This document shows positions 5,321 to 32,747 of a stretch of 33,103 nucleotides of DNA, one piece after another; position 1 is the stretch's first letter; each line of letters opens with the position of its first letter. The translations under genes were made by a program, and so were the position numbers. The DNA lies in the IMG/VR virus record IMGVR_UViG_3300030098_002236, positions 1-33,103 of that record. One strand, written 5' to 3'. This stretch comes from a virus. Lineage: Duplodnaviria > Caudoviricetes. Below the pieces are notes generated by a model. It did no database searches and had not been told where the DNA came from. It saw nothing but the letters and a program-made list of their open reading frames with translations.

Positions 5321-5781
5321 ATGAAACAGCACAAAAACTAGAACAAGATATTGATATATCGTTAGTTTTACCTGGACAAGTAAGTATGATCTGGGATAAA
5401 TGCGAAAAAATATTATTGCGTTCTTGCAAAAGGTCTGGTGGCAGAATAAATCCAAAAGATATTTATGCTAGATGTATTGAAAACAGAAGCAGTCTTTGGA
5501 TTATATTTGAAACAGATACTTTAAATATTATAGGTTGTGGTGTAACACAACTACACGATTATCCAAGTGGTTTGCGTATGTTAAATCTAGAACATTTAGC
5601 TGGTAAACAATATTCAGAATGGGTCGATAAAGGTTTTGATACCCTATACAAATGGGCAAAAGACAATAAATGTGATGGTATAGAAGCATTAGGCAGACCA
5701 GGATTTTGGAACTGGATAAAGAAAGAAAAGGGCTGGAAGGAAACTTCTAGATTTTATGAACTTAAATTTGACAAGGATTAA
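5317..5781 (+). CDS. Putative GNAT-fold virion-associated protein
   Basis: 154 aa with LAG...W...AK...C..IE..GR.G.W pattern, located between ejection genes. Confidence 0.5.
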   Translation: MNETAQKLEQDIDISLVLPGQVSMIWDKCEKILLRSCKRSGGRINPKDIYARCIENRSSLWIIFETDTLNIIGCGVTQLHDYPSGLRMLNLEHLAGKQYSEWVDKGFDTLYKWAKDNKCDGIEALGRPGFWNWIKKEKGWKETSRFYELKFDKD

Positions 5782-26210: not shown

Positions 26211-26400
26211 ATCAGGTGCTACGCGTAAAAAGAATATTTACTAGTCTAAGGTTTTTCCAGAAGGATCGAAAATCAAAATATTTTTAAATCAGGAAACTGG
26301 GATGGTAAGTTTTACAAATACCAATACAAATAACAATACCAACACAAATACAAATTCTGTCTCAATCAATCGACTGTCTCTCGTTAATTTTTTTTAGACC

Positions 26401-26433
26401 AAAAAAAAGGGAAGATTTTTACATCTTCCCTTT
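26401..26433 (-). terminator. Intrinsic terminator
   Basis: GGGAAGAU-GUAAAA-AUCUUCCC followed by U8. Confidence 0.85.
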
Positions 26434-26504
26434 AGGTGTTAGGTTATTACTAACTTATTAACACAGTAGGAGGTTTTAATTACTATGTTAATCAAACATA
26501 CTTG
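26401..26504 (-). ncRNA. Predicted ~100-nt sRNA with an anti-Shine-Dalgarno loop
   Basis: Own promoter and terminator. 11-bp stem UUAACAUAGUA/UACUGUGUUAA with loop AUUAAAACCUCC; second hairpin GUUAG/CUAAC. Confidence 0.65.
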
Positions 26505-26509
26505 GTTTT

Positions 26510-26538
26510 AATATAGGTCAAAAGATTGCAAAACGCAA
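26510..26538 (-). promoter_or_regulatory. Sigma70 promoter of the predicted sRNA
   Basis: TTGCGT-17-TATATT. Confidence 0.6.
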
Positions 26539-26583: not shown

Positions 26584-26731
26584 TCCATATTTTTACCAGT
26601 AAATATTTATTTTGAGCTTTCCAAAACACGTTAGCGACTACTATCACCCAACTACCAACAATCAATATATACCAGTAAATATTTATACAATCAGGTGATC
26701 GGGCTTCTACCACTTTCTCTTTATTTTTGCC

Positions 26732-26770: not shown

Positions 26771-26990
26771 CCATGACAATTTCTTTTGTGAGTTTGTCAA
26801 ACGCACTGCTATTCGTTATTTATACCTGTTATTTATCGTTAGCATTTAATATTTATTTTGCTTGGTACTTGCACTCTAGCAACTGGCAAGTCTAGTTTTT
26901 GTTTTCAAGAGCCAAACTAACAGACTCATGCAATTTCAGTTATTTTATTTTATGTCGTATAACTGGACACAACGTTCAAGATCGACATTC
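26771..26990 (-). ncRNA. Putative structured RNA (3' trailer) with a pseudoknot and a module shared with the hammerhead insert
   Basis: Interleaved stems AUGUCG/CGACAU and CAGUUAU/AUAACUG; 22 nt at 26841-26862 are identical to 29923-29944. Confidence 0.5.
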
Positions 26991-26992
26991 AC

Positions 26993-27190
26993 TCAGCTAT
27001 TCTCTTCCATAAAAGAAGTTCTAGCATCATGATAAAAGGCAACTTGAACACCTTGATAAGTTCTAATATCAGCAACACTATCTAAACCAACTTTTTCTTG
27101 GTCAGATAATGTGCTAATAATCACCCAATCTTTATGTCCAAATTCCTCTTCGCAGTGGTCATCTATGATTTCAGTAATATCTCTGCTCAT
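26993..27190 (-). CDS. Small acidic hypothetical protein
   Basis: 65 aa, GAGGAG RBS, ATGA-coupled. Confidence 0.7.
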   Translation of the reverse strand: MSRDITEIIDDHCEEEFGHKDWVIISTLSDQEKVGLDSVADIRTYQGVQVAFYHDARTSFMEENS

Positions 27191-27393
27191 AATTTCAACT
27201 CCTCTTCATCAGACACACTGATTAATTCATAGTCTCCACCTTGAGATTTAATTTCCTCCCACTCTTTACTGGCATCATCAGAAAAATCGCCACTTAACAT
27301 TAAATTAACAGCATCTTCCTCAGATTCAGCGATTACCTCGCATCTCTCAGTAGTAGAAAAATCCATTTCAAATACATATCTTTTTATAGTCAT
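27187..27393 (-). CDS. Small acidic hypothetical protein ('V.AESEEDA' type)
   Basis: 68 aa, AGGAGG RBS. Confidence 0.75.
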   Translation of the reverse strand: MTIKRYVFEMDFSTTERCEVIAESEEDAVNLMLSGDFSDDASKEWEEIKSQGGDYELISVSDEEELKL

Positions 27394-27421
27394 AAAACCT
27401 CCTATTTTTTATGTATTTATT

Positions 27422-27488
27422 TAAGTTTCTGTTTCACCTATTTTTAGGCTCATCAGTGAAAAACACCCATTTTTCAGACAAAAACTCA
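27422..27488 (-). ncRNA. Hammerhead ribozyme, type III (HH1)
   Basis: UGAGUUUUUG-UC^UGAAAAA(UGGGUG)UUUUUCA-CUGAUGA-GCCUA(AAAA)UAGGU-GAAA-CAGAAACUUA; predicted cut between 27477 and 27476. Confidence 0.85.
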
Positions 27489-27585
27489 GATTTCGACCTC
27501 TCAGAATCCTCTCTCTTGCATTAAGACGATAAGGGTAAGGGTCTAGCATAGGCTAGATTACCCTACCCTTAAATCGAATCAGACG

Positions 27586-28851
27586 TTAGTGAAACTCAGA
27601 AACGTTGACGTATACGTTCTCCCCAAAAGGAAATTTAGGGTCATACTCATAACCATTATGAGTTATCGCCCAAATTACAGGAACGCTTGGCTCTACTTTT
27701 GCATCCACTTCGCCATAAGCATCTGTGAAATAAATAAAGGCACAAACTTCCTCAACATCATCTGAATAGTTATTAAAGAGATTAAAAGGAGGGTCAAAAT
27801 CTGTTCCTCCTCCACCTCTTACCTCTAGTTCAATATCATCACCCATTGAGAGATCAAATACATCCCACCATTCATCCTCGCTATTTTTTCTTACAGTAGT
27901 ATCGCAATAGCAAACTCTTACTTTATCAATGTTGCAAGATTCACATATTGCCTGTAATTCCTCAGAAAAAATGTTGAGTTCAAATTGTGAAACTGAACCA
28001 CTGGTATCAATGGCAACTGCAATTTCCCCACCCTCATTAGAACGTATCTTGCTAGGTAAATTAATACCCCTCCAAGAATGACGTTTATTCAGTCTTGACC
28101 ATGATTGATCTTTTAGGGTCATTGAAGTTAGTAAATCAGATAACAAGTCTCTCCAGTTAAGAGTTCCACCCTTAACAGCATCAACTCTTCCAGTCATTGA
28201 GGAAGTTCCACTCAGACTGGCGATCTTATCAGCGAAAAACACTTGCGATCTGATAGCATTAGACATTTCTTCCTTTTCAGATTCATTAAGAGGTTTACCC
28301 TCTTCGTTCACTGCATCCCATACCTCACCTACAAGTTTAGGTATGTTGGAATACTTATCATCACTTGATGATTGTGAATTGCTATCTGAATCATCAGAAT
28401 TGCCATTTGCACTATTGCACTCATCTATTGCTTGTTGCAAGGCATCATCATTAGTATCAAGTTCTCGATAGACTTGTTCAGCAGTCCACCCACGATACTT
28501 ATAATTAAATAATCCACCTTGAGGTAAATCCATGCCTAGATCAATTTTGATATAAGCATTGATTACATAATCAGTAGCTACATTCCATAGTTCGTGATTA
28601 CGTTTACCTCGTCTAAGTGGATGTTCCCATACAACGTGCATAGATTCATGGATGAGAACACACTCTATCTCTTTATCTGTTATCTCTTTAACAAACTTAG
28701 GATTCCAAAGTATCTCTTTTCCATTGGTAGCCATAGTGTCGCACTTATCAGTTTCTACTAATTCAAGATTAAGTAGCATTGATGCAATTCCTACATCATG
28801 TTTCATTAATCTTGCTCTTGCTTGTAAAACTCTATCAGTCATCTTTACCAC
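27586..28851 (-). CDS. DUF2201-type metallopeptidase + vWA domain protein
   Basis: TMATNG, HESMH (HExxH), WNVATDYVIN, MIDAS DTSGS, GGGGTDF, FTD. Confidence 0.92.
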   Translation of the reverse strand: MVKMTDRVLQARARLMKHDVGIASMLLNLELVETDKCDTMATNGKEILWNPKFVKEITDKEIECVLIHESMHVVWEHPLRRGKRNHELWNVATDYVINAYIKIDLGMDLPQGGLFNYKYRGWTAEQVYRELDTNDDALQQAIDECNSANGNSDDSDSNSQSSSDDKYSNIPKLVGEVWDAVNEEGKPLNESEKEEMSNAIRSQVFFADKIASLSGTSSMTGRVDAVKGGTLNWRDLLSDLLTSMTLKDQSWSRLNKRHSWRGINLPSKIRSNEGGEIAVAIDTSGSVSQFELNIFSEELQAICESCNIDKVRVCYCDTTVRKNSEDEWWDVFDLSMGDDIELEVRGGGGTDFDPPFNLFNNYSDDVEEVCAFIYFTDAYGEVDAKVEPSVPVIWAITHNGYEYDPKFPFGENVYVNVSEFH

Positions 28852-29803
28852 CTAGTTTTTTCATTAATCCACCTTTCAATGGGTCAATGGCTTTATCTAG
28901 ATCATCAGCAACTTTTTTACGTTTTGCATCTCCAATATCAGTCTCATCTCTAAGAGAATCAATACTGTTAATGGTAGACAAAACAGCTACTAGACTTTGG
29001 TGAGCATTAGCTATATCAATGTCATTGCCTAATACGTCTTGATTGACGTTAGGAATAACTTCAACTGCTTTTCGCAATTTATCGAAACTAGAATCTTTAA
29101 AGAATCCACCCTTTTTATTAGTAGGGTCATAAGATTTAAGTTTCTCTGATATATGCTCAACTTGTTCTACTAAAGCATCAACAGTAGTCTGAAATATTGT
29201 CTTAACATTTTTGCTAAGTCTCTTTTCAGCATCCTGTTCGATACGTTTTCGCAAGTCAGCAGATACGTTTAATCTGATATCGTTGCTATAGCTAGGTATT
29301 AAAGAAATCTCAAAATCAAATTTGAATTTATCTTTAATATCATCCACTGGTGGATAATCACCCATATTGAAAGCATGACCTAAAACTTCTTTAGCATCAA
29401 TAATCATATTAGGATAGTTCTTACAAAACTCATCAACTTCTTTAAAGAAGTCTTGCCTTGCTTGATCTACTGCCTTTTGCAAATTGTCTAATTGACTATT
29501 TGGGCATAATCTCCACCCACTTACGACCTTGTTATCATCATCCGAGGAATTATCATCCCAAGGCAAAGTCAGTGGATAGTAGCTATCATTTCGCACTTTG
29601 TTAATGATTCGTCTAAAGTATTTATTAGCATTGAATCCAACTAAATGCTTGGCAACGTGCAACAAAGATTCATCACTTGTATTAGTAATATCAGCTAAGT
29701 TATTACGAAGTGATTTATCAGTTTTAATGCCACTCCAAAACTTAGTAGTAAGTCTTACCAAAGTAGCATTTTCACTTAACGTATTAGTATTTTCATTTTT
29801 CAT
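28835..29803 (-). CDS. Helical protein, DUF3150-like
   Basis: 322 aa; K.L, TLPW.D..W.L, F..NYP, YP....I..KF pattern; lies between the ATPase and vWA genes. Confidence 0.6.
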   Translation of the reverse strand: MKNENTNTLSENATLVRLTTKFWSGIKTDKSLRNNLADITNTSDESLLHVAKHLVGFNANKYFRRIINKVRNDSYYPLTLPWDDNSSDDDNKVVSGWRLCPNSQLDNLQKAVDQARQDFFKEVDEFCKNYPNMIIDAKEVLGHAFNMGDYPPVDDIKDKFKFDFEISLIPSYSNDIRLNVSADLRKRIEQDAEKRLSKNVKTIFQTTVDALVEQVEHISEKLKSYDPTNKKGGFFKDSSFDKLRKAVEVIPNVNQDVLGNDIDIANAHQSLVAVLSTINSIDSLRDETDIGDAKRKKVADDLDKAIDPLKGGLMKKLGGKDD

Positions 29804-29858
29804 AAAACCTCCTAGAAAAATATATACTGGTTAATAATATTTCCTATCATTAGGAAAC

Positions 29859-30044
29859 ACCTAGACTGGAAAGTGTTTGTCAAAGTAGTACCTTGATATA
29901 AGACTATTCATTTATCTCGTTGAGCATTTAATATTTATTTTGCTCGTCTAACGCGGTTGTACTTAAATGGGAAACCCCTTCTCCCATATACCATAGACTT
30001 CTACTCTCCAGTTTCGCCTAAATTTCATAGGCTCATCAGTAGGT
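29859..30044 (-). ncRNA. Hammerhead ribozyme, type I, with a ~134-nt insert in stem III (HH2)
   Basis: ACCUA-CUGAUGA-GCCUA(UGAAAUU)UAGGC-GAAA-CUGGAGAGU...ACUUUCCAG-UC^UAGGU; predicted cut 29864/29863. Confidence 0.85.
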
Positions 30045-30045
30045 T

Positions 30046-31095
30046 TTAATACTCTAAGTCTTGATGCTCAACTTTAAATTTTGCATAGACTGAAGTATCA
30101 ATTAATTCACTTCTCCTAGTGATAGATTGTCTTACGAAAAACAAACTAAACTCTGGAGTAGCGAATTTCTGAACATAGGCAAGAGCATTTTCAAAATAAT
30201 CTACAACTAGAGATTTTTTTGCACTCTTGATTACATCCACTAAGGCAACAGCAGTGGCAAAACAAAGTCCTACTTTGTCAACGACTTCCACGTCTTTACC
30301 ACTTACTATGTCGCTTAGATTTGGAACATCATCCATTAGTGAAATGAAGTTAGTAAATTCAATTGCTTGTATTTCCCCAACATCACATTCAGCTATTTTC
30401 TGAATGAGTTCTTTAGGTGGATTGGTTTTTAATGTATCACTCAATCTCGACCATGCTCTAGGGCTTGGTTGAGGAGTAGTGATCTTGGCATCAAAATCAT
30501 TAAGAAATTGAGGTTGAAAGTTCAGATAACCTACTACCCTACTATCAACATCATTCTCAATTGCCCACTTATCCCAATCTTGAAAGTCATGCTCAAAATT
30601 AATTAATGAGCATCTTCCAATAACATGACTAGGAAGTTTGTTAGAACCAGCACGATCACTCGCCCTGTTTCCAGCACATATCATTTTCCACCCTTTAGGC
30701 AAAACGTATTCGCCTAAACGCTTTTCATAGATCAATTGACCTACCACAGCTTGAACGCTTGGATGTGCTTGGGCATACTCATCAAAAAATAAGACACCCT
30801 CGCCACTCTTGGGAAGATTACCTAAAAAGGCTCTCTTTTGTCCTCCCTCATCATCTATATAAGGAAGTCCACCAAGATCAACTGATTCATATAACGAAAG
30901 TCTAAAATCAATAAATCCAAACTCTTTTGACTTAGGATTAATGTTATCAACGACTATCTCTCTACTATCAGCTAACTCAGTAGCTAATTGCCTAACTACA
31001 GCAGATTTTCCAACACCTGTTCCACCTAGTAGAAAAGGCGTGTTTCCACCACCTAAAACAGATTTCATAATCTGTAATGCTTGACTTGGTTTCAT
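30046..31095 (-). CDS. MoxR-like AAA+ ATPase
   Basis: Walker A GGTGVGKS, Walker B LFFDE, AGNR, SPRAW. Start set at MKPSQ after the GGAGG RBS. Confidence 0.92.
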   Translation of the reverse strand: MKPSQALQIMKSVLGGGNTPFLLGGTGVGKSAVVRQLATELADSREIVVDNINPKSKEFGFIDFRLSLYESVDLGGLPYIDDEGGQKRAFLGNLPKSGEGVLFFDEYAQAHPSVQAVVGQLIYEKRLGEYVLPKGWKMICAGNRASDRAGSNKLPSHVIGRCSLINFEHDFQDWDKWAIENDVDSRVVGYLNFQPQFLNDFDAKITTPQPSPRAWSRLSDTLKTNPPKELIQKIAECDVGEIQAIEFTNFISLMDDVPNLSDIVSGKDVEVVDKVGLCFATAVALVDVIKSAKKSLVVDYFENALAYVQKFATPEFSLFFVRQSITRRSELIDTSVYAKFKVEHQDLEY

Positions 31096-31167
31096 AATAA
31101 TTCCCTCCATGAAACAAAGTTAGTAAAAAGATTTACCAGTCAATAAAAAATATTTTCCAGTAAATCC

Positions 31168-31231
31168 ACCTAGACTAGATCAAGTCTCCTTGATCTAGTT
31201 TCGCAAGAATCTCACTTGCTCGTCAGTAGGT
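31168..31231 (-). ncRNA. Hammerhead ribozyme, type I (HH3)
   Basis: ACCUA-CUGACGA-GCAAG(UGAGAUU)CUUGC-GAAA-CUAGAUCAAG(GAGA)CUUGAUCUAG-UC^UAGGU; predicted cut 31173/31172. Confidence 0.95.
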
Positions 31232-31573
31232 TTAGGTCAAAACATTAGAGATACGTTCCTCATTAGGATTCACCCAACGATCTCTAGACATAAGACCATT
31301 TTCTAAAACGTATTCTAGATGCTTAGTAGCATTATTAATGTTATTAAACATTCTTGCTCTATAACCACTCTCATCACATAAATAGCAGTCAAATTTTGTT
31401 AAAAAATAATAACTCCTATTTTCACCATACAACTCTTTAATTAAGTCATATACATTCCAAGAATAAATATAAACCTCAATTTCGTTATGTGGCTCGACTA
31501 TTCTTGTATTGTCTCTCCAAACTTTCCAGTCCTTAGAGACAACTTTTTTCTTAGACCATTTAATACTATTCAC
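31232..31573 (-). CDS. Hypothetical early protein (GTG start)
   Basis: 113 aa, GGAGG RBS, flanked by HH4 and HH3. Confidence 0.7.
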   Translation of the reverse strand: MNSIKWSKKKVVSKDWKVWRDNTRIVEPHNEIEVYIYSWNVYDLIKELYGENRSYYFLTKFDCYLCDESGYRARMFNNINNATKHLEYVLENGLMSRDRWVNPNEERISNVLT

Positions 31574-31599
31574 GAAATACCTCCCAGTATTTAATAATT

Positions 31600-31665
31600 A
31601 CCTAGACTAAACCCTAAATAATTAGGGTCTAGTTTCGCCAAAATTTCATTGGCTCGTCAGTAGGC
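31600..31665 (-). ncRNA. Hammerhead ribozyme, type I (HH4)
   Basis: GCCUA-CUGACGA-GCCAA(UGAAAUU)UUGGC-GAAA-CUAGACCCUAA(UUAU)UUAGGGUUUAG-UC^UAGGU; predicted cut 31605/31604. Confidence 0.95.
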
Positions 31666-32075
31666 TAAATTGCTAGGGCAACTGGCTCATCTAAAAATAG
31701 ATCATTCTCAATCTCTCGCAATATATAAACCTTGCTAGGGTCTATCTCTATGCAAGTAGTGTTTGACGAAATTAAAAGAGCATCCATGTAAAGGTATTGA
31801 TCTCCTTTAGATTGTTTCAAGTAAACTAAATCACTCTTAAACAGTTCACAAAATAAAGTGTTTAGTCTCTCTCTCGTTGTAACTGTTCCCCACCCACACA
31901 TAGAGAAACATAAGTGAATATTATTACTTAAATTTTCGCTAGGATGATTGTTCTCCCACCATGCAATTTTATTGTTATGCAGAAAAATCTCACCATTCTC
32001 GGTGTAAGTATTTCCCACAGTTTTTTTCTTATCATTAATAAACGCTTTCGCAATTTCTATAGATACTTTTCTCAT
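31665..32075 (-). CDS. Hypothetical early protein (MRKVSIEIAKAF...)
   Basis: Start reassigned to 32075 behind GGAGG, since the longer track start lies inside HH5. LHNNKIA..GWGTVTTRERLN pattern. Confidence 0.8.
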   Translation of the reverse strand: MRKVSIEIAKAFINDKKKTVGNTYTENGEIFLHNNKIAWWENNHPSENLSNNIHLCFSMCGWGTVTTRERLNTLFCELFKSDLVYLKQSKGDQYLYMDALLISSNTTCIEIDPSKVYILREIENDLFLDEPVALAI

Positions 32076-32083
32076 AAATAAAA

Positions 32084-32156
32084 CCTCCAAAGTTTTATGT
32101 TTCTTGAACCCCATTAGGGGATTCTCTTCAGCACGTTAGTTCGTGGACATAGGAGG
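32084..32156 (-). ncRNA. Variant hammerhead ribozyme, type III (HH5)
   Basis: CCUCC-UAUG-UC^CACG(AACUAA)CGUG-CUGAAGA-GAAUCCCC(UAAU)GGGGUUC-AA-GAAA-CAUA...GGAGG; extra AA before GAAA; predicted cut 32146/32145. Confidence 0.7.
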
Positions 32157-32183
32157 GAAATTAATCCCCCCTCTCTTTAAAAA

Positions 32184-32390
32184 TCAAATACAGACCTTAA
32201 CCACATTCTTTACAGATTCAGAATAGCTATCTTGTTCAATTGTTTCCCATTCGCATAAAGGTTCATTATCTTGGGCAATAACTTTCGCTTGTTCTTCGTT
32301 ATCAGCTTTCACTATTTTGAATACCTTATAAGTGTATTCTCCTTGTACTTTGTATCTACTCATCTTCGTTTGTTGATCTACTTTCATCAT
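32184..32390 (-). CDS. Small hypothetical protein ('VKADNEEQA' type)
   Basis: 68 aa, GGAGG RBS; first gene of the leftward operon. Confidence 0.75.
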   Translation of the reverse strand: MMKVDQQTKMSRYKVQGEYTYKVFKIVKADNEEQAKVIAQDNEPLCEWETIEQDSYSESVKNVVKVCI

Positions 32391-32394
32391 TCAT

Positions 32395-32467
32395 ACCTCC
32401 AAGTATGTTTCTTGAACCCCAAAATAGGATTCTCATTCAGCTTGTTAATTCAAGGACACATGGAGGT
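32395..32467 (-). ncRNA. Variant hammerhead ribozyme, type III (HH6)
   Basis: ACCUCCA-UGUG-UC^CUUG(AAUUAA)CAAG-CUGAAUGA-GAAUCCUA(UUU)UGGGGUUC-AA-GAAA-CAUA-CU-UGGAGGU; predicted cut 32455/32454. Confidence 0.65.
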
Positions 32468-32747
32468 TGTGTCAGTAGTTCTTACTTTTCCCTAGTTTGA
32501 TTTTTCAGCTATCGCTTACTGGTCAATGTTCAAGAGGAATTTCATACCCTTAAAGAATCTCAGAGAGATTCACCCACGCCCATTTGTTTTAAGTCAAGGT
32601 CTCGTTCCAACGACTACTGGCTTTATATTTCACCAATACAAGTATTTAAACAGATTACAGCATCATTGTCTAATCATATTTATCTATATATCTGATAGCT
32701 AAATGAGATCATTACCAAGAAGACAATAACCAGTTAATATTCAATCT

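Follow-up and report, generated by a model that had tools for sequence, protein, structure and literature searches.

Genome-specific stem I matching in a phage hammerhead ribozyme array and its probable link to gene-cassette recombination

Clustered hammerhead ribozymes have been described around variable genes of prophages, and their cleavage has been observed in vitro (Perreault et al. 2011, PMC3088659). Processing of transcripts into gene-length mRNAs was proposed in the same report, where spliced or circular products were also considered and sought, and were not detected. The purpose of hammerhead arrays in phages is regarded as unsettled (PMC6765202). Two same-sense hammerheads likewise stand at the unit ends of retrozymes and of hammerhead viroids (PMC7229834, PMC6155905, PMC7761336, PMC6765202). 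A further relevant system is provided by the PeSL cassettes of T4-type phages. These short regulatory repeats separate small, non-essential genes in a variable region and act as recombination points for modular shuffling (PMC2839356). Here, we compare with these systems an array of hammerheads in a virus record of 33.1 kb from an uncultured aquatic tailed phage, the whole of which (33,103 nucleotides) is called the window. Our preferred reading, held with moderate confidence, is that its hammerheads give linear single-gene messages and act as recombination joints in the DNA.

Six hammerheads in a minus-strand gene block

The window codes for an endolysin, virion proteins, a primase-helicase, a Sak-like annealing protein, an exonuclease and the terminase small subunit. 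No close cultured relative was found, its AAA ATPase being below 60% to all 794 matches, and a virion protein reaches 33–39% to a gammaproteobacterial phage, roseophages and pelagiphages. The hammerhead array sits within a minus-strand block of small genes, the AAA ATPase, a DUF3150-like protein and a DUF2201 protein. Read in the direction of this strand, the block comprises a 68-aa ORF (32184..32390) without a match in PHROG or Pfam, a 136-aa ORF (31665..32075; PHROG 554, of unknown function) whose TAG stop overlaps the 5' arm of the hammerhead HH4, and a 113-aa ORF (31232..31573) whose TAA abuts the 5' arm of HH3. The last of these is a swappable cassette gene, its position being occupied by other genes in close relatives. 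There follow the 349-aa AAA ATPase (30046..31095, with its ATG at 31095; PHROG 1297, E 7e-71, and a weak match to Pfam AAA_5), the 322-aa DUF3150-like protein (28835..29803), a 418-aa putative metallopeptidase or VWA-like protein with DUF2201_N and DUF2201 (27586..28842), and, at the end of the block and ahead of a terminator-like hairpin (26772-26739), two small ORFs of 68 and 65 aa (26993..27393).

In a descriptor scan of the window, six hammerheads and no more were found, each of them on the minus strand. The stretch 27300-32700 accounts for all six, whereas 200 dinucleotide shuffles gave 0.11 matches on average and never more than 1. The CUGANGA and GAAA boxes, the NUH triplet and three helices are present in all six motifs, and ribozyme activity is predicted from this agreement with the consensus. 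With Rfam alone, only the 5' half of HH2 was matched, at 38.3 bits and below the gathering score of 48.5. The cut is predicted after C17 in each copy. HH6 (32395..32467, type III, cut after 32455) carries an additional base in its CUGA box, two A are inserted between its stem II and GAAA, and the CCUCC upstream of it can pair with the GGAGG of the next gene; HH5 (32084..32157, cut after 32146) is of type III with the same AA insertion. The three central copies are of type I, namely HH4 (31600..31665, stem I GCCUA/UAGGU with a G.U pair, cut after 31605), HH3 (31168..31231, ACCUA/UAGGU, cut after 31173), which is directly followed by a leader hairpin, and HH2 (29859..30044, ACCUA/UAGGU, cut after 29864), the loop III of which contains a multi-hairpin insert of 128 nt (29875-30002). 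HH1 (27422..27488, cut after 27477) is again of type III, though of another family than HH6 and HH5.

Among close relatives the loop III insert of HH2 varies in length and sequence, the stem III region spanning 145-304 nt, and 22 identical bases are common to this insert and positions 26841-26862. In the predicted fold of 30044-29800 (minus strand), the partner of the HH2 5' arm is not UAGGU but the ribosome site of the following gene, a possible alternative state.

Much of what the preliminary description had read from the window is upheld. The three type I copies do have a common 3' arm, UAGGU, while stems II and III differ in the descriptor scan; its fragment sizes of 309, 432 and 1309 nt are correct; and the 113-aa gene (31232-31573) and the ATPase lie where it had placed them. 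On paper, the 432-nt and 1309-nt pieces, each starting with UAGGU and ending with a free 5' arm, could each re-form a hammerhead as it had claimed. Compatible ribozymes of the same type stand at the ends of the units HH4-HH3, HH3-HH2 and HH6-HH5, and not of HH5-HH4 or HH2-HH1. The match that it had noted between the halves of HH6 and HH5 (UAUG/CAUA, CCUCC/GGAGG) is present, but the GGAGG is the ribosome-binding site of the next gene, and the CCUCC/GGAGG part is also found in type III copies without a tandem partner, which speaks against reading it as a sign of circles.

The type III variant of HH6 and HH5 is characterized by the two extra A between stem II and GAAA and by a loop I of the AAUUAA type, and 48 distinct ribozymes with the AA insertion were found in related loci, among the matches listed. 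A CCUCC-like stretch lies just upstream of the cut in 44 of these 48 and GGAG lies downstream in 46, mostly without a tandem partner, among the matches listed; the upstream CCUCC could hide the ribosome site of the next gene until cleavage. The AA insertion before GAAA, present in the window, is absent among the core variants in section 8 of PMC3088659, and an insertion after A6, as in HH6, gave low activity according to that report.

Stem I matching within and between genomes

The first set of relatives consisted of 80 loci fetched through the ATPase, together with the window; 165 hammerhead motif matches lie on the ATPase strand, and the opposite strand has none. The ATPase loci contain 53 distinct type I copies, each of which combines an RCCWA/UWGGU stem I with a UGARA-type loop II, the 3' arm being UAGGU in 31 and UUGGU in 22. 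Their stems II and III vary with pairing kept, pairing being part of the scan filter, and a separate search without any stem I requirement recovered the same stem I arms. An extra pattern scan requiring CCWA yielded 19 distinct multi-copy RCCWA signatures, including one that is a partial copy of another and one with a 3' arm beyond its locus, and none of the 19 mixes UAGGU with UUGGU; the chance compatibility of two random RCCWA ribozymes is 49%. Single-copy signatures account for 57 of 76, many of them with kilobases of flank and some in short loci. The UAGGU/UUGGU variant changes several times, yet clusters, on a quick ATPase tree, and the same types of stems II and III are found with either variant. 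Inside the UAGGU clade there is one lone UUGGU copy, in locus L043. Its surroundings (~5590-5650) and those of the copy in L044 (~2220-2275) have a near-identical upstream context and identical stem II, and the ATPases differ by ~1-2%; stem I is of the UUGGU type in L043 and of the UAGGU type in L044, each matched to itself.

For the wider class, stem I was left open and the UGARA loop was required, long flanks being available for 80 loci per scan. This gave at least 291 distinct ribozymes of type I, all with a UGARA-type loop II, in at least 802 loci, many of which overlap. Among the matches listed, stem I of this class is about 5 bp long and free in sequence, with 88 different 3' arms across which pairing is preserved, and an A directly precedes it in 273 of 291 ribozymes. 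Neighbouring copies nevertheless agree, 37 of 41 distinct pairs (not independent, with 13 from the clade of the window) being cross-compatible as against 6.6% of random pairs among the matches listed. Among neighbours with at least two differences in the 4 positions of stem II, 24 of 24 pairs are compatible, compared with 5.8% of random ones, among the matches listed. Stem I is identical in 90% of neighbours and 6.4% of random pairs, stem II in 34% and 8.1%, and stem III in 24% and 2.6%, while the mean stem II difference is 1.78 of 4 for neighbours and 1.85 for random pairs, all among the matches listed. Grouping of the pairs by eye into 18 lineages gave 16 compatible ones, eight with stem I outside RCCWA, among the matches listed. 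The locus L615 has the same stem I with unrelated stems II and III, and within arrays no part varies less than the 3' arm.

The homogenisation of stem I is thus real, specific to stem I and not universal. This is the pattern, homogenised within genomes and different between them, that the preliminary description had put forward for comparison (37 of 41 neighbours against 6.6% of random pairs, among the matches listed). A clash of stem I between adjacent copies, which it had taken as evidence against circles, was found as well, albeit in the smaller part, with 37 pairs compatible and four incompatible among the matches listed. These four fall into two groups (L201, at 392-1500, L479 and L609; L297). 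Since they exist, and three of them have identical stem II, matching is not obligatory under either a circle or a recombination model. Outside the pair statistics stand a five-copy array around L469, compatible by eye and with a short stem I, as well as L342, and also L061, which is compatible. Whether the cross is counted as for a circle or as for skipping a unit makes a difference for only one pair (L551, 5 versus 4). In whole-record scans of 5 phages, multiple copies always lay in one region and on one strand, and a search of 8 loci with Rfam found no other ribozyme class able to partner lone copies. The UGARA-loop pattern also occurs in many bacterial phyla and in ammonia-oxidising archaea (L312-L391), nearly always singly among the matches listed.

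Sufficient flank was available for 68 ATPase loci, of which 43 have a motif right after the gene (35 of type III and 8 of type I). Type I copies on both sides of the ATPase are confined to 8 of the 68, which all belong to the clade of the window; in another 10, the ATPase is preceded by type I and followed by type III. Type III hammerheads just after the ATPase, with a U-U mismatch opening stem II and an AUA or GUA triplet, were observed in L018, L024, L029, L042, L068 and others. An AT-rich quasi-palindrome centred on ACCAGT/ACTGGT is repeated near the ribozymes of the window (26588-26690, 29819-29845 and 31128-31166) and is possibly an operator. In 60 of 68 loci, a loose form of it follows the ATPase at a distance of no more than 330 nt, and L038, L041 and L079 have copies that lie within the stems of ribozymes.

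Recombination at ribozymes and the competing explanations

The layout runs from stop codon through 5' arm, core, 3' arm, leader and ribosome site to gene. In 67 of 102 distinct RCCWA ribozymes, or 67 of the 86 with an upstream ORF called, the upstream stop lies directly against the 5' arm or overlaps it, so that a homology box starts exactly at the gene end. Different genes lie between the same ribozymes in close relatives. L009 carries one extra cassette compared with L008, and its junction is at the stop-arm-core box, the upstream gene end and this box being common to the two loci before stems II and III diverge. Such a junction cannot be a product of RNA ligation, as a unit joined at the cut site keeps its own stems II and III. 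Different gene ends stand ahead of the same HH3 in the window, L003 and L004, and at the position of HH4 two types of stem II and two of stem III are found in each of the four possible combinations (window, L001, L003, L008). The switch between L053 and L067 lies at the cut-site box and fits either an RNA or a DNA route.

Hammerhead cleavage gives products with a 5'-OH start and a cyclic-phosphate end. According to the reading that we prefer, a single long phage transcript would be cleaved by the six hammerheads into linear messages of one or two genes each, and gene cassettes would be swapped by DNA recombination at the ribozymes, which probably maintains the match of stem I in a genome. If a crossover fell inside a type I ribozyme, hairpins II and III would be left whole and the 5' and 3' arms of stem I would be drawn from different copies, and a working ribozyme would then be obtained only if these arms match. 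Identical arms would at the same time lengthen the short homology boxes, stop-RCCWA-CUGANGAG and GUC-UWGGU, and the likely agents of swapping are the genome's Sak-like annealing protein and exonuclease. The cut pieces, with a 5'-OH start and a cyclic-phosphate end behind hairpins, may pair end to end, and a small share of them may be ligated as a by-product. Some points weigh against recombination joints. Cleavage and recombination are both predictions here; the variant switches among close kin (L043), yet none of 19 multi-copy signatures is mixed, and this lack of mixed arrays may need stronger selection within genomes than rare crossovers give. The predicted end pairing of two cut pieces would suit circles, and the recombination and circle models predict the same matching, for which reason the neighbour-pair statistic cannot separate them.

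In the other model, the matching arms have been selected because they let the two ends of an excised piece pair and a hammerhead form again, after which the ribozyme itself or a host ligase of the RtcB type would seal the piece into a circular single-gene mRNA; in a softer form of the model, the message is end-paired but unsealed. We regard this as unlikely, and it is rather doubtful that a genome-specific 5-base stem I code leads to excised gene RNA being sealed as circular mRNA or re-joined to another piece. The 37 closable pairs among 41 neighbours, which involve several unrelated stem I sequences among the matches listed, speak for circles, as does the presence of ribosome site, gene and stop in both type I units of the window. 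Closing is, however, confined to 8 of 68 ATPase loci and to one clade, 57 of 76 RCCWA signatures are single-copy in the loci examined, some of which are short, and the HH5-HH4 and HH2-HH1 pieces are unable to close. Across the ATPase loci, cutting is conserved and closing is not, as far as both can be predicted from the motifs. Crossovers inside the ribozymes would moreover be a sufficient reason for matching arms, and the circular mRNAs of the preliminary description are not favoured by these comparisons.

Folding and ligation chemistry bear on circles in both directions. With ViennaRNA, end pairing of the two window pieces is predicted at a probability of ~0.79 and 0.98 at 20 C, and over 24 short units at a mean of 0.44 against 0.27 in interior-shuffled controls, a weak indication; long-range pairing is unreliable in this program, and these values were given little weight. 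Accessible arms are needed for self-cleavage in any case, which can explain why native pieces pair better than shuffled ones, and in local folds the precursor stem I has a probability of only 0.00-0.44. Extended hammerheads ligate 2000-fold faster than minimal ones (PMC6155905), a point in favour of circles. Retrozyme monomers were circularised by RtcB to 30-80%, but their self-ligation reached only 1-3% (PMC7229834). RtcB was found in none of 5 phage records, of which 4 have a completeness of at least 90%, a count covering phage records alone. A sealed junction would, in addition, be the parental and presumably active ribozyme, and would be expected to re-open. The circular products looked for by Perreault et al. 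(2011, PMC3088659) were not detected by them. Of 16 RNA-library runs with matching contigs, none contained half of the sequence words, and the shares were too small for a statement on habitat. Contigs from five of these runs were compared with the window (X2-X5) and with L009 (X1, X2, X4, X5), and no back-joint was found in them, a weak test given that these contigs have patchy cover, come from related strains, may be DNA and can reveal presence only. One X2 contig, which may be DNA, crosses the HH2 cut site in genomic order, whereas the X4 and X5 contigs end short of both ATPase cut sites and are uninformative on them. The loose ends of X4 and X5 at 30002 were rejected as a junction, since they match the different loop III insert of L009 and reflect strain variation.

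Shared descent alone appears improbable. In this view, duplication in a lineage produced the copies, and stem I evolved at a lower rate than stems II and III, with no selection for cross-pairing. Many arrays beyond the family of the window share stem II as well (L248, L481, L493, L509, L551), the variant clusters on the ATPase tree, and the incompatible pairs reveal that divergence is tolerated, all of which speak for descent. Across genomes, however, stem I is no more conserved than stem II (6.4% versus 8.1% identical, among the matches listed), and among the matches listed neighbours are identical in stem I in 90% and in stem II in 34%, with a mean stem II difference at the random level (1.78 against 1.85). 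The unrelated stems II and III of L615 argue in the same direction, as does compatibility in 16 of 18 by-eye lineages, the pairs being non-independent and taken among the matches listed. The plain duplication offered by the preliminary description fits poorly with neighbours whose stem II is as different as at random while stem I is matched, among the matches listed.

It is very unlikely that a genome-specific partner, either a small RNA or a protein, reads the UWGGU at the 5' end of the released messages. The 3' arm is indeed least variable within arrays, but G/U-rich 3' arms tolerate wobble changes on the opposite arm, which explains the asymmetry. A conserved candidate small RNA (~26512-26400) with CCUCC in its loop has a stretch complementary to UAGGU in the clade of the window; its homologues in the UUGGU genomes L018, L020, L039 and L048, compared by eye, lack the matching switch, and the UAGGU genome L024 lacks the complementary stretch. 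This candidate (26400-26512, minus strand) has a terminator-like hairpin at its end and a hairpin loop that contains AAAACCUCCUA, the complement of the ribosome sites which follow HH2 and HH1. Elements resembling this candidate were seen in L001, L008, L018, L020, L024, L039, L048, L052, L066 and L068. The other alternative of the preliminary description, that stem I is fixed in sequence by tertiary contact between it and the UGARA loop on stem II, deserves hardly any credence and as a class-wide rule appears largely refuted by the motif comparisons: all 53 distinct type I copies in ATPase loci combine RCCWA/UWGGU with such a loop, but among the matches listed from other phages and prophages the same loop II stands with 88 different 3' arms, so that no such contact fixes CCUA/UAGG, and only the ~5 bp stem and the preceding A are kept (273 of 291, among the matches listed).

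Relation to described arrays, retrozymes and PeSL cassettes

That stem I is matched within genomes yet free between them can be measured, and it points to an interaction between the copies, at the level of either DNA or RNA. It makes the question of what arrays are for testable with a few short transcripts, for which incompatible arrays provide natural negative controls. Should recombination be the cause, ribozymes serve phage evolution as plug-and-play joints between genes; circles, if any were detected, would be a new, ribozyme-built natural route to circular mRNA in bacteria.

Both retrozymes or hammerhead viroids (PMC7229834, PMC6155905, PMC7761336, PMC6765202) and the window have two same-sense hammerheads at the unit ends, and a released unit with 5'-OH and cyclic-phosphate ends can re-form one ribozyme. 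In retrozymes and viroids, however, the flanking copies repeat one element, circles have been demonstrated and the unit is a mobile or replicating RNA, whereas the copies in the window have diverged, the units are coding genes of a DNA phage and circles are only predicted. Swap junctions are also found at the 5' box, off the cut site, which does not agree with spread of the unit as RNA; the lack of opposite-strand ribozymes in 80 loci and the window counts against rolling-circle replication or RNA spread, and a reverse transcriptase (RVT_1) is absent in 5 of 5 related or similar phage records.

The likeness to PeSL cassettes (Arbiol et al. 2010, PMC2839356) is that a repeat in a variable region serves as a shuffling joint, and natural chimeras point to recombination junctions within the repeat here too. 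A PeSL is a promoter plus a terminator, and DNA mini-circles have been demonstrated for it (PMC2839356), whereas the repeat of the window is formed by a catalytic RNA, with a spanning helix that has to remain paired once a swap has taken place; no pair of sigma-70 promoter and terminator was found at the ribozymes of the window. The hammerhead array works like a PeSL, yet is none.

Among ribozyme families, the consensus of Rfam Hammerhead_3 (RF00008) has similar core boxes and a UGAAAU-type loop II. Scores against it and the RAGATH-1 hammerhead (RF03152) are nevertheless below gathering (38.3 of 48.5 in the window; 35.5 of 56.3 in L183), and the three central copies of the window, as distinct from both, are of type I. 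The closest resemblance is to the arrays of Perreault et al. (2011, PMC3088659), in which several same-strand copies also flank single genes or short blocks and gene identity is inconstant; beyond what that report describes, arrays of the window type exhibit genome-specific stem I matching, signs of crossovers within ribozymes and a stop codon at the 5' arm. No earlier report of genome-specific stem I matching was found in the open-licence literature. The array of the window belongs to a known kind, and what is new is the quantified, genome-specific matching of stem I together with natural chimeras that explain it.
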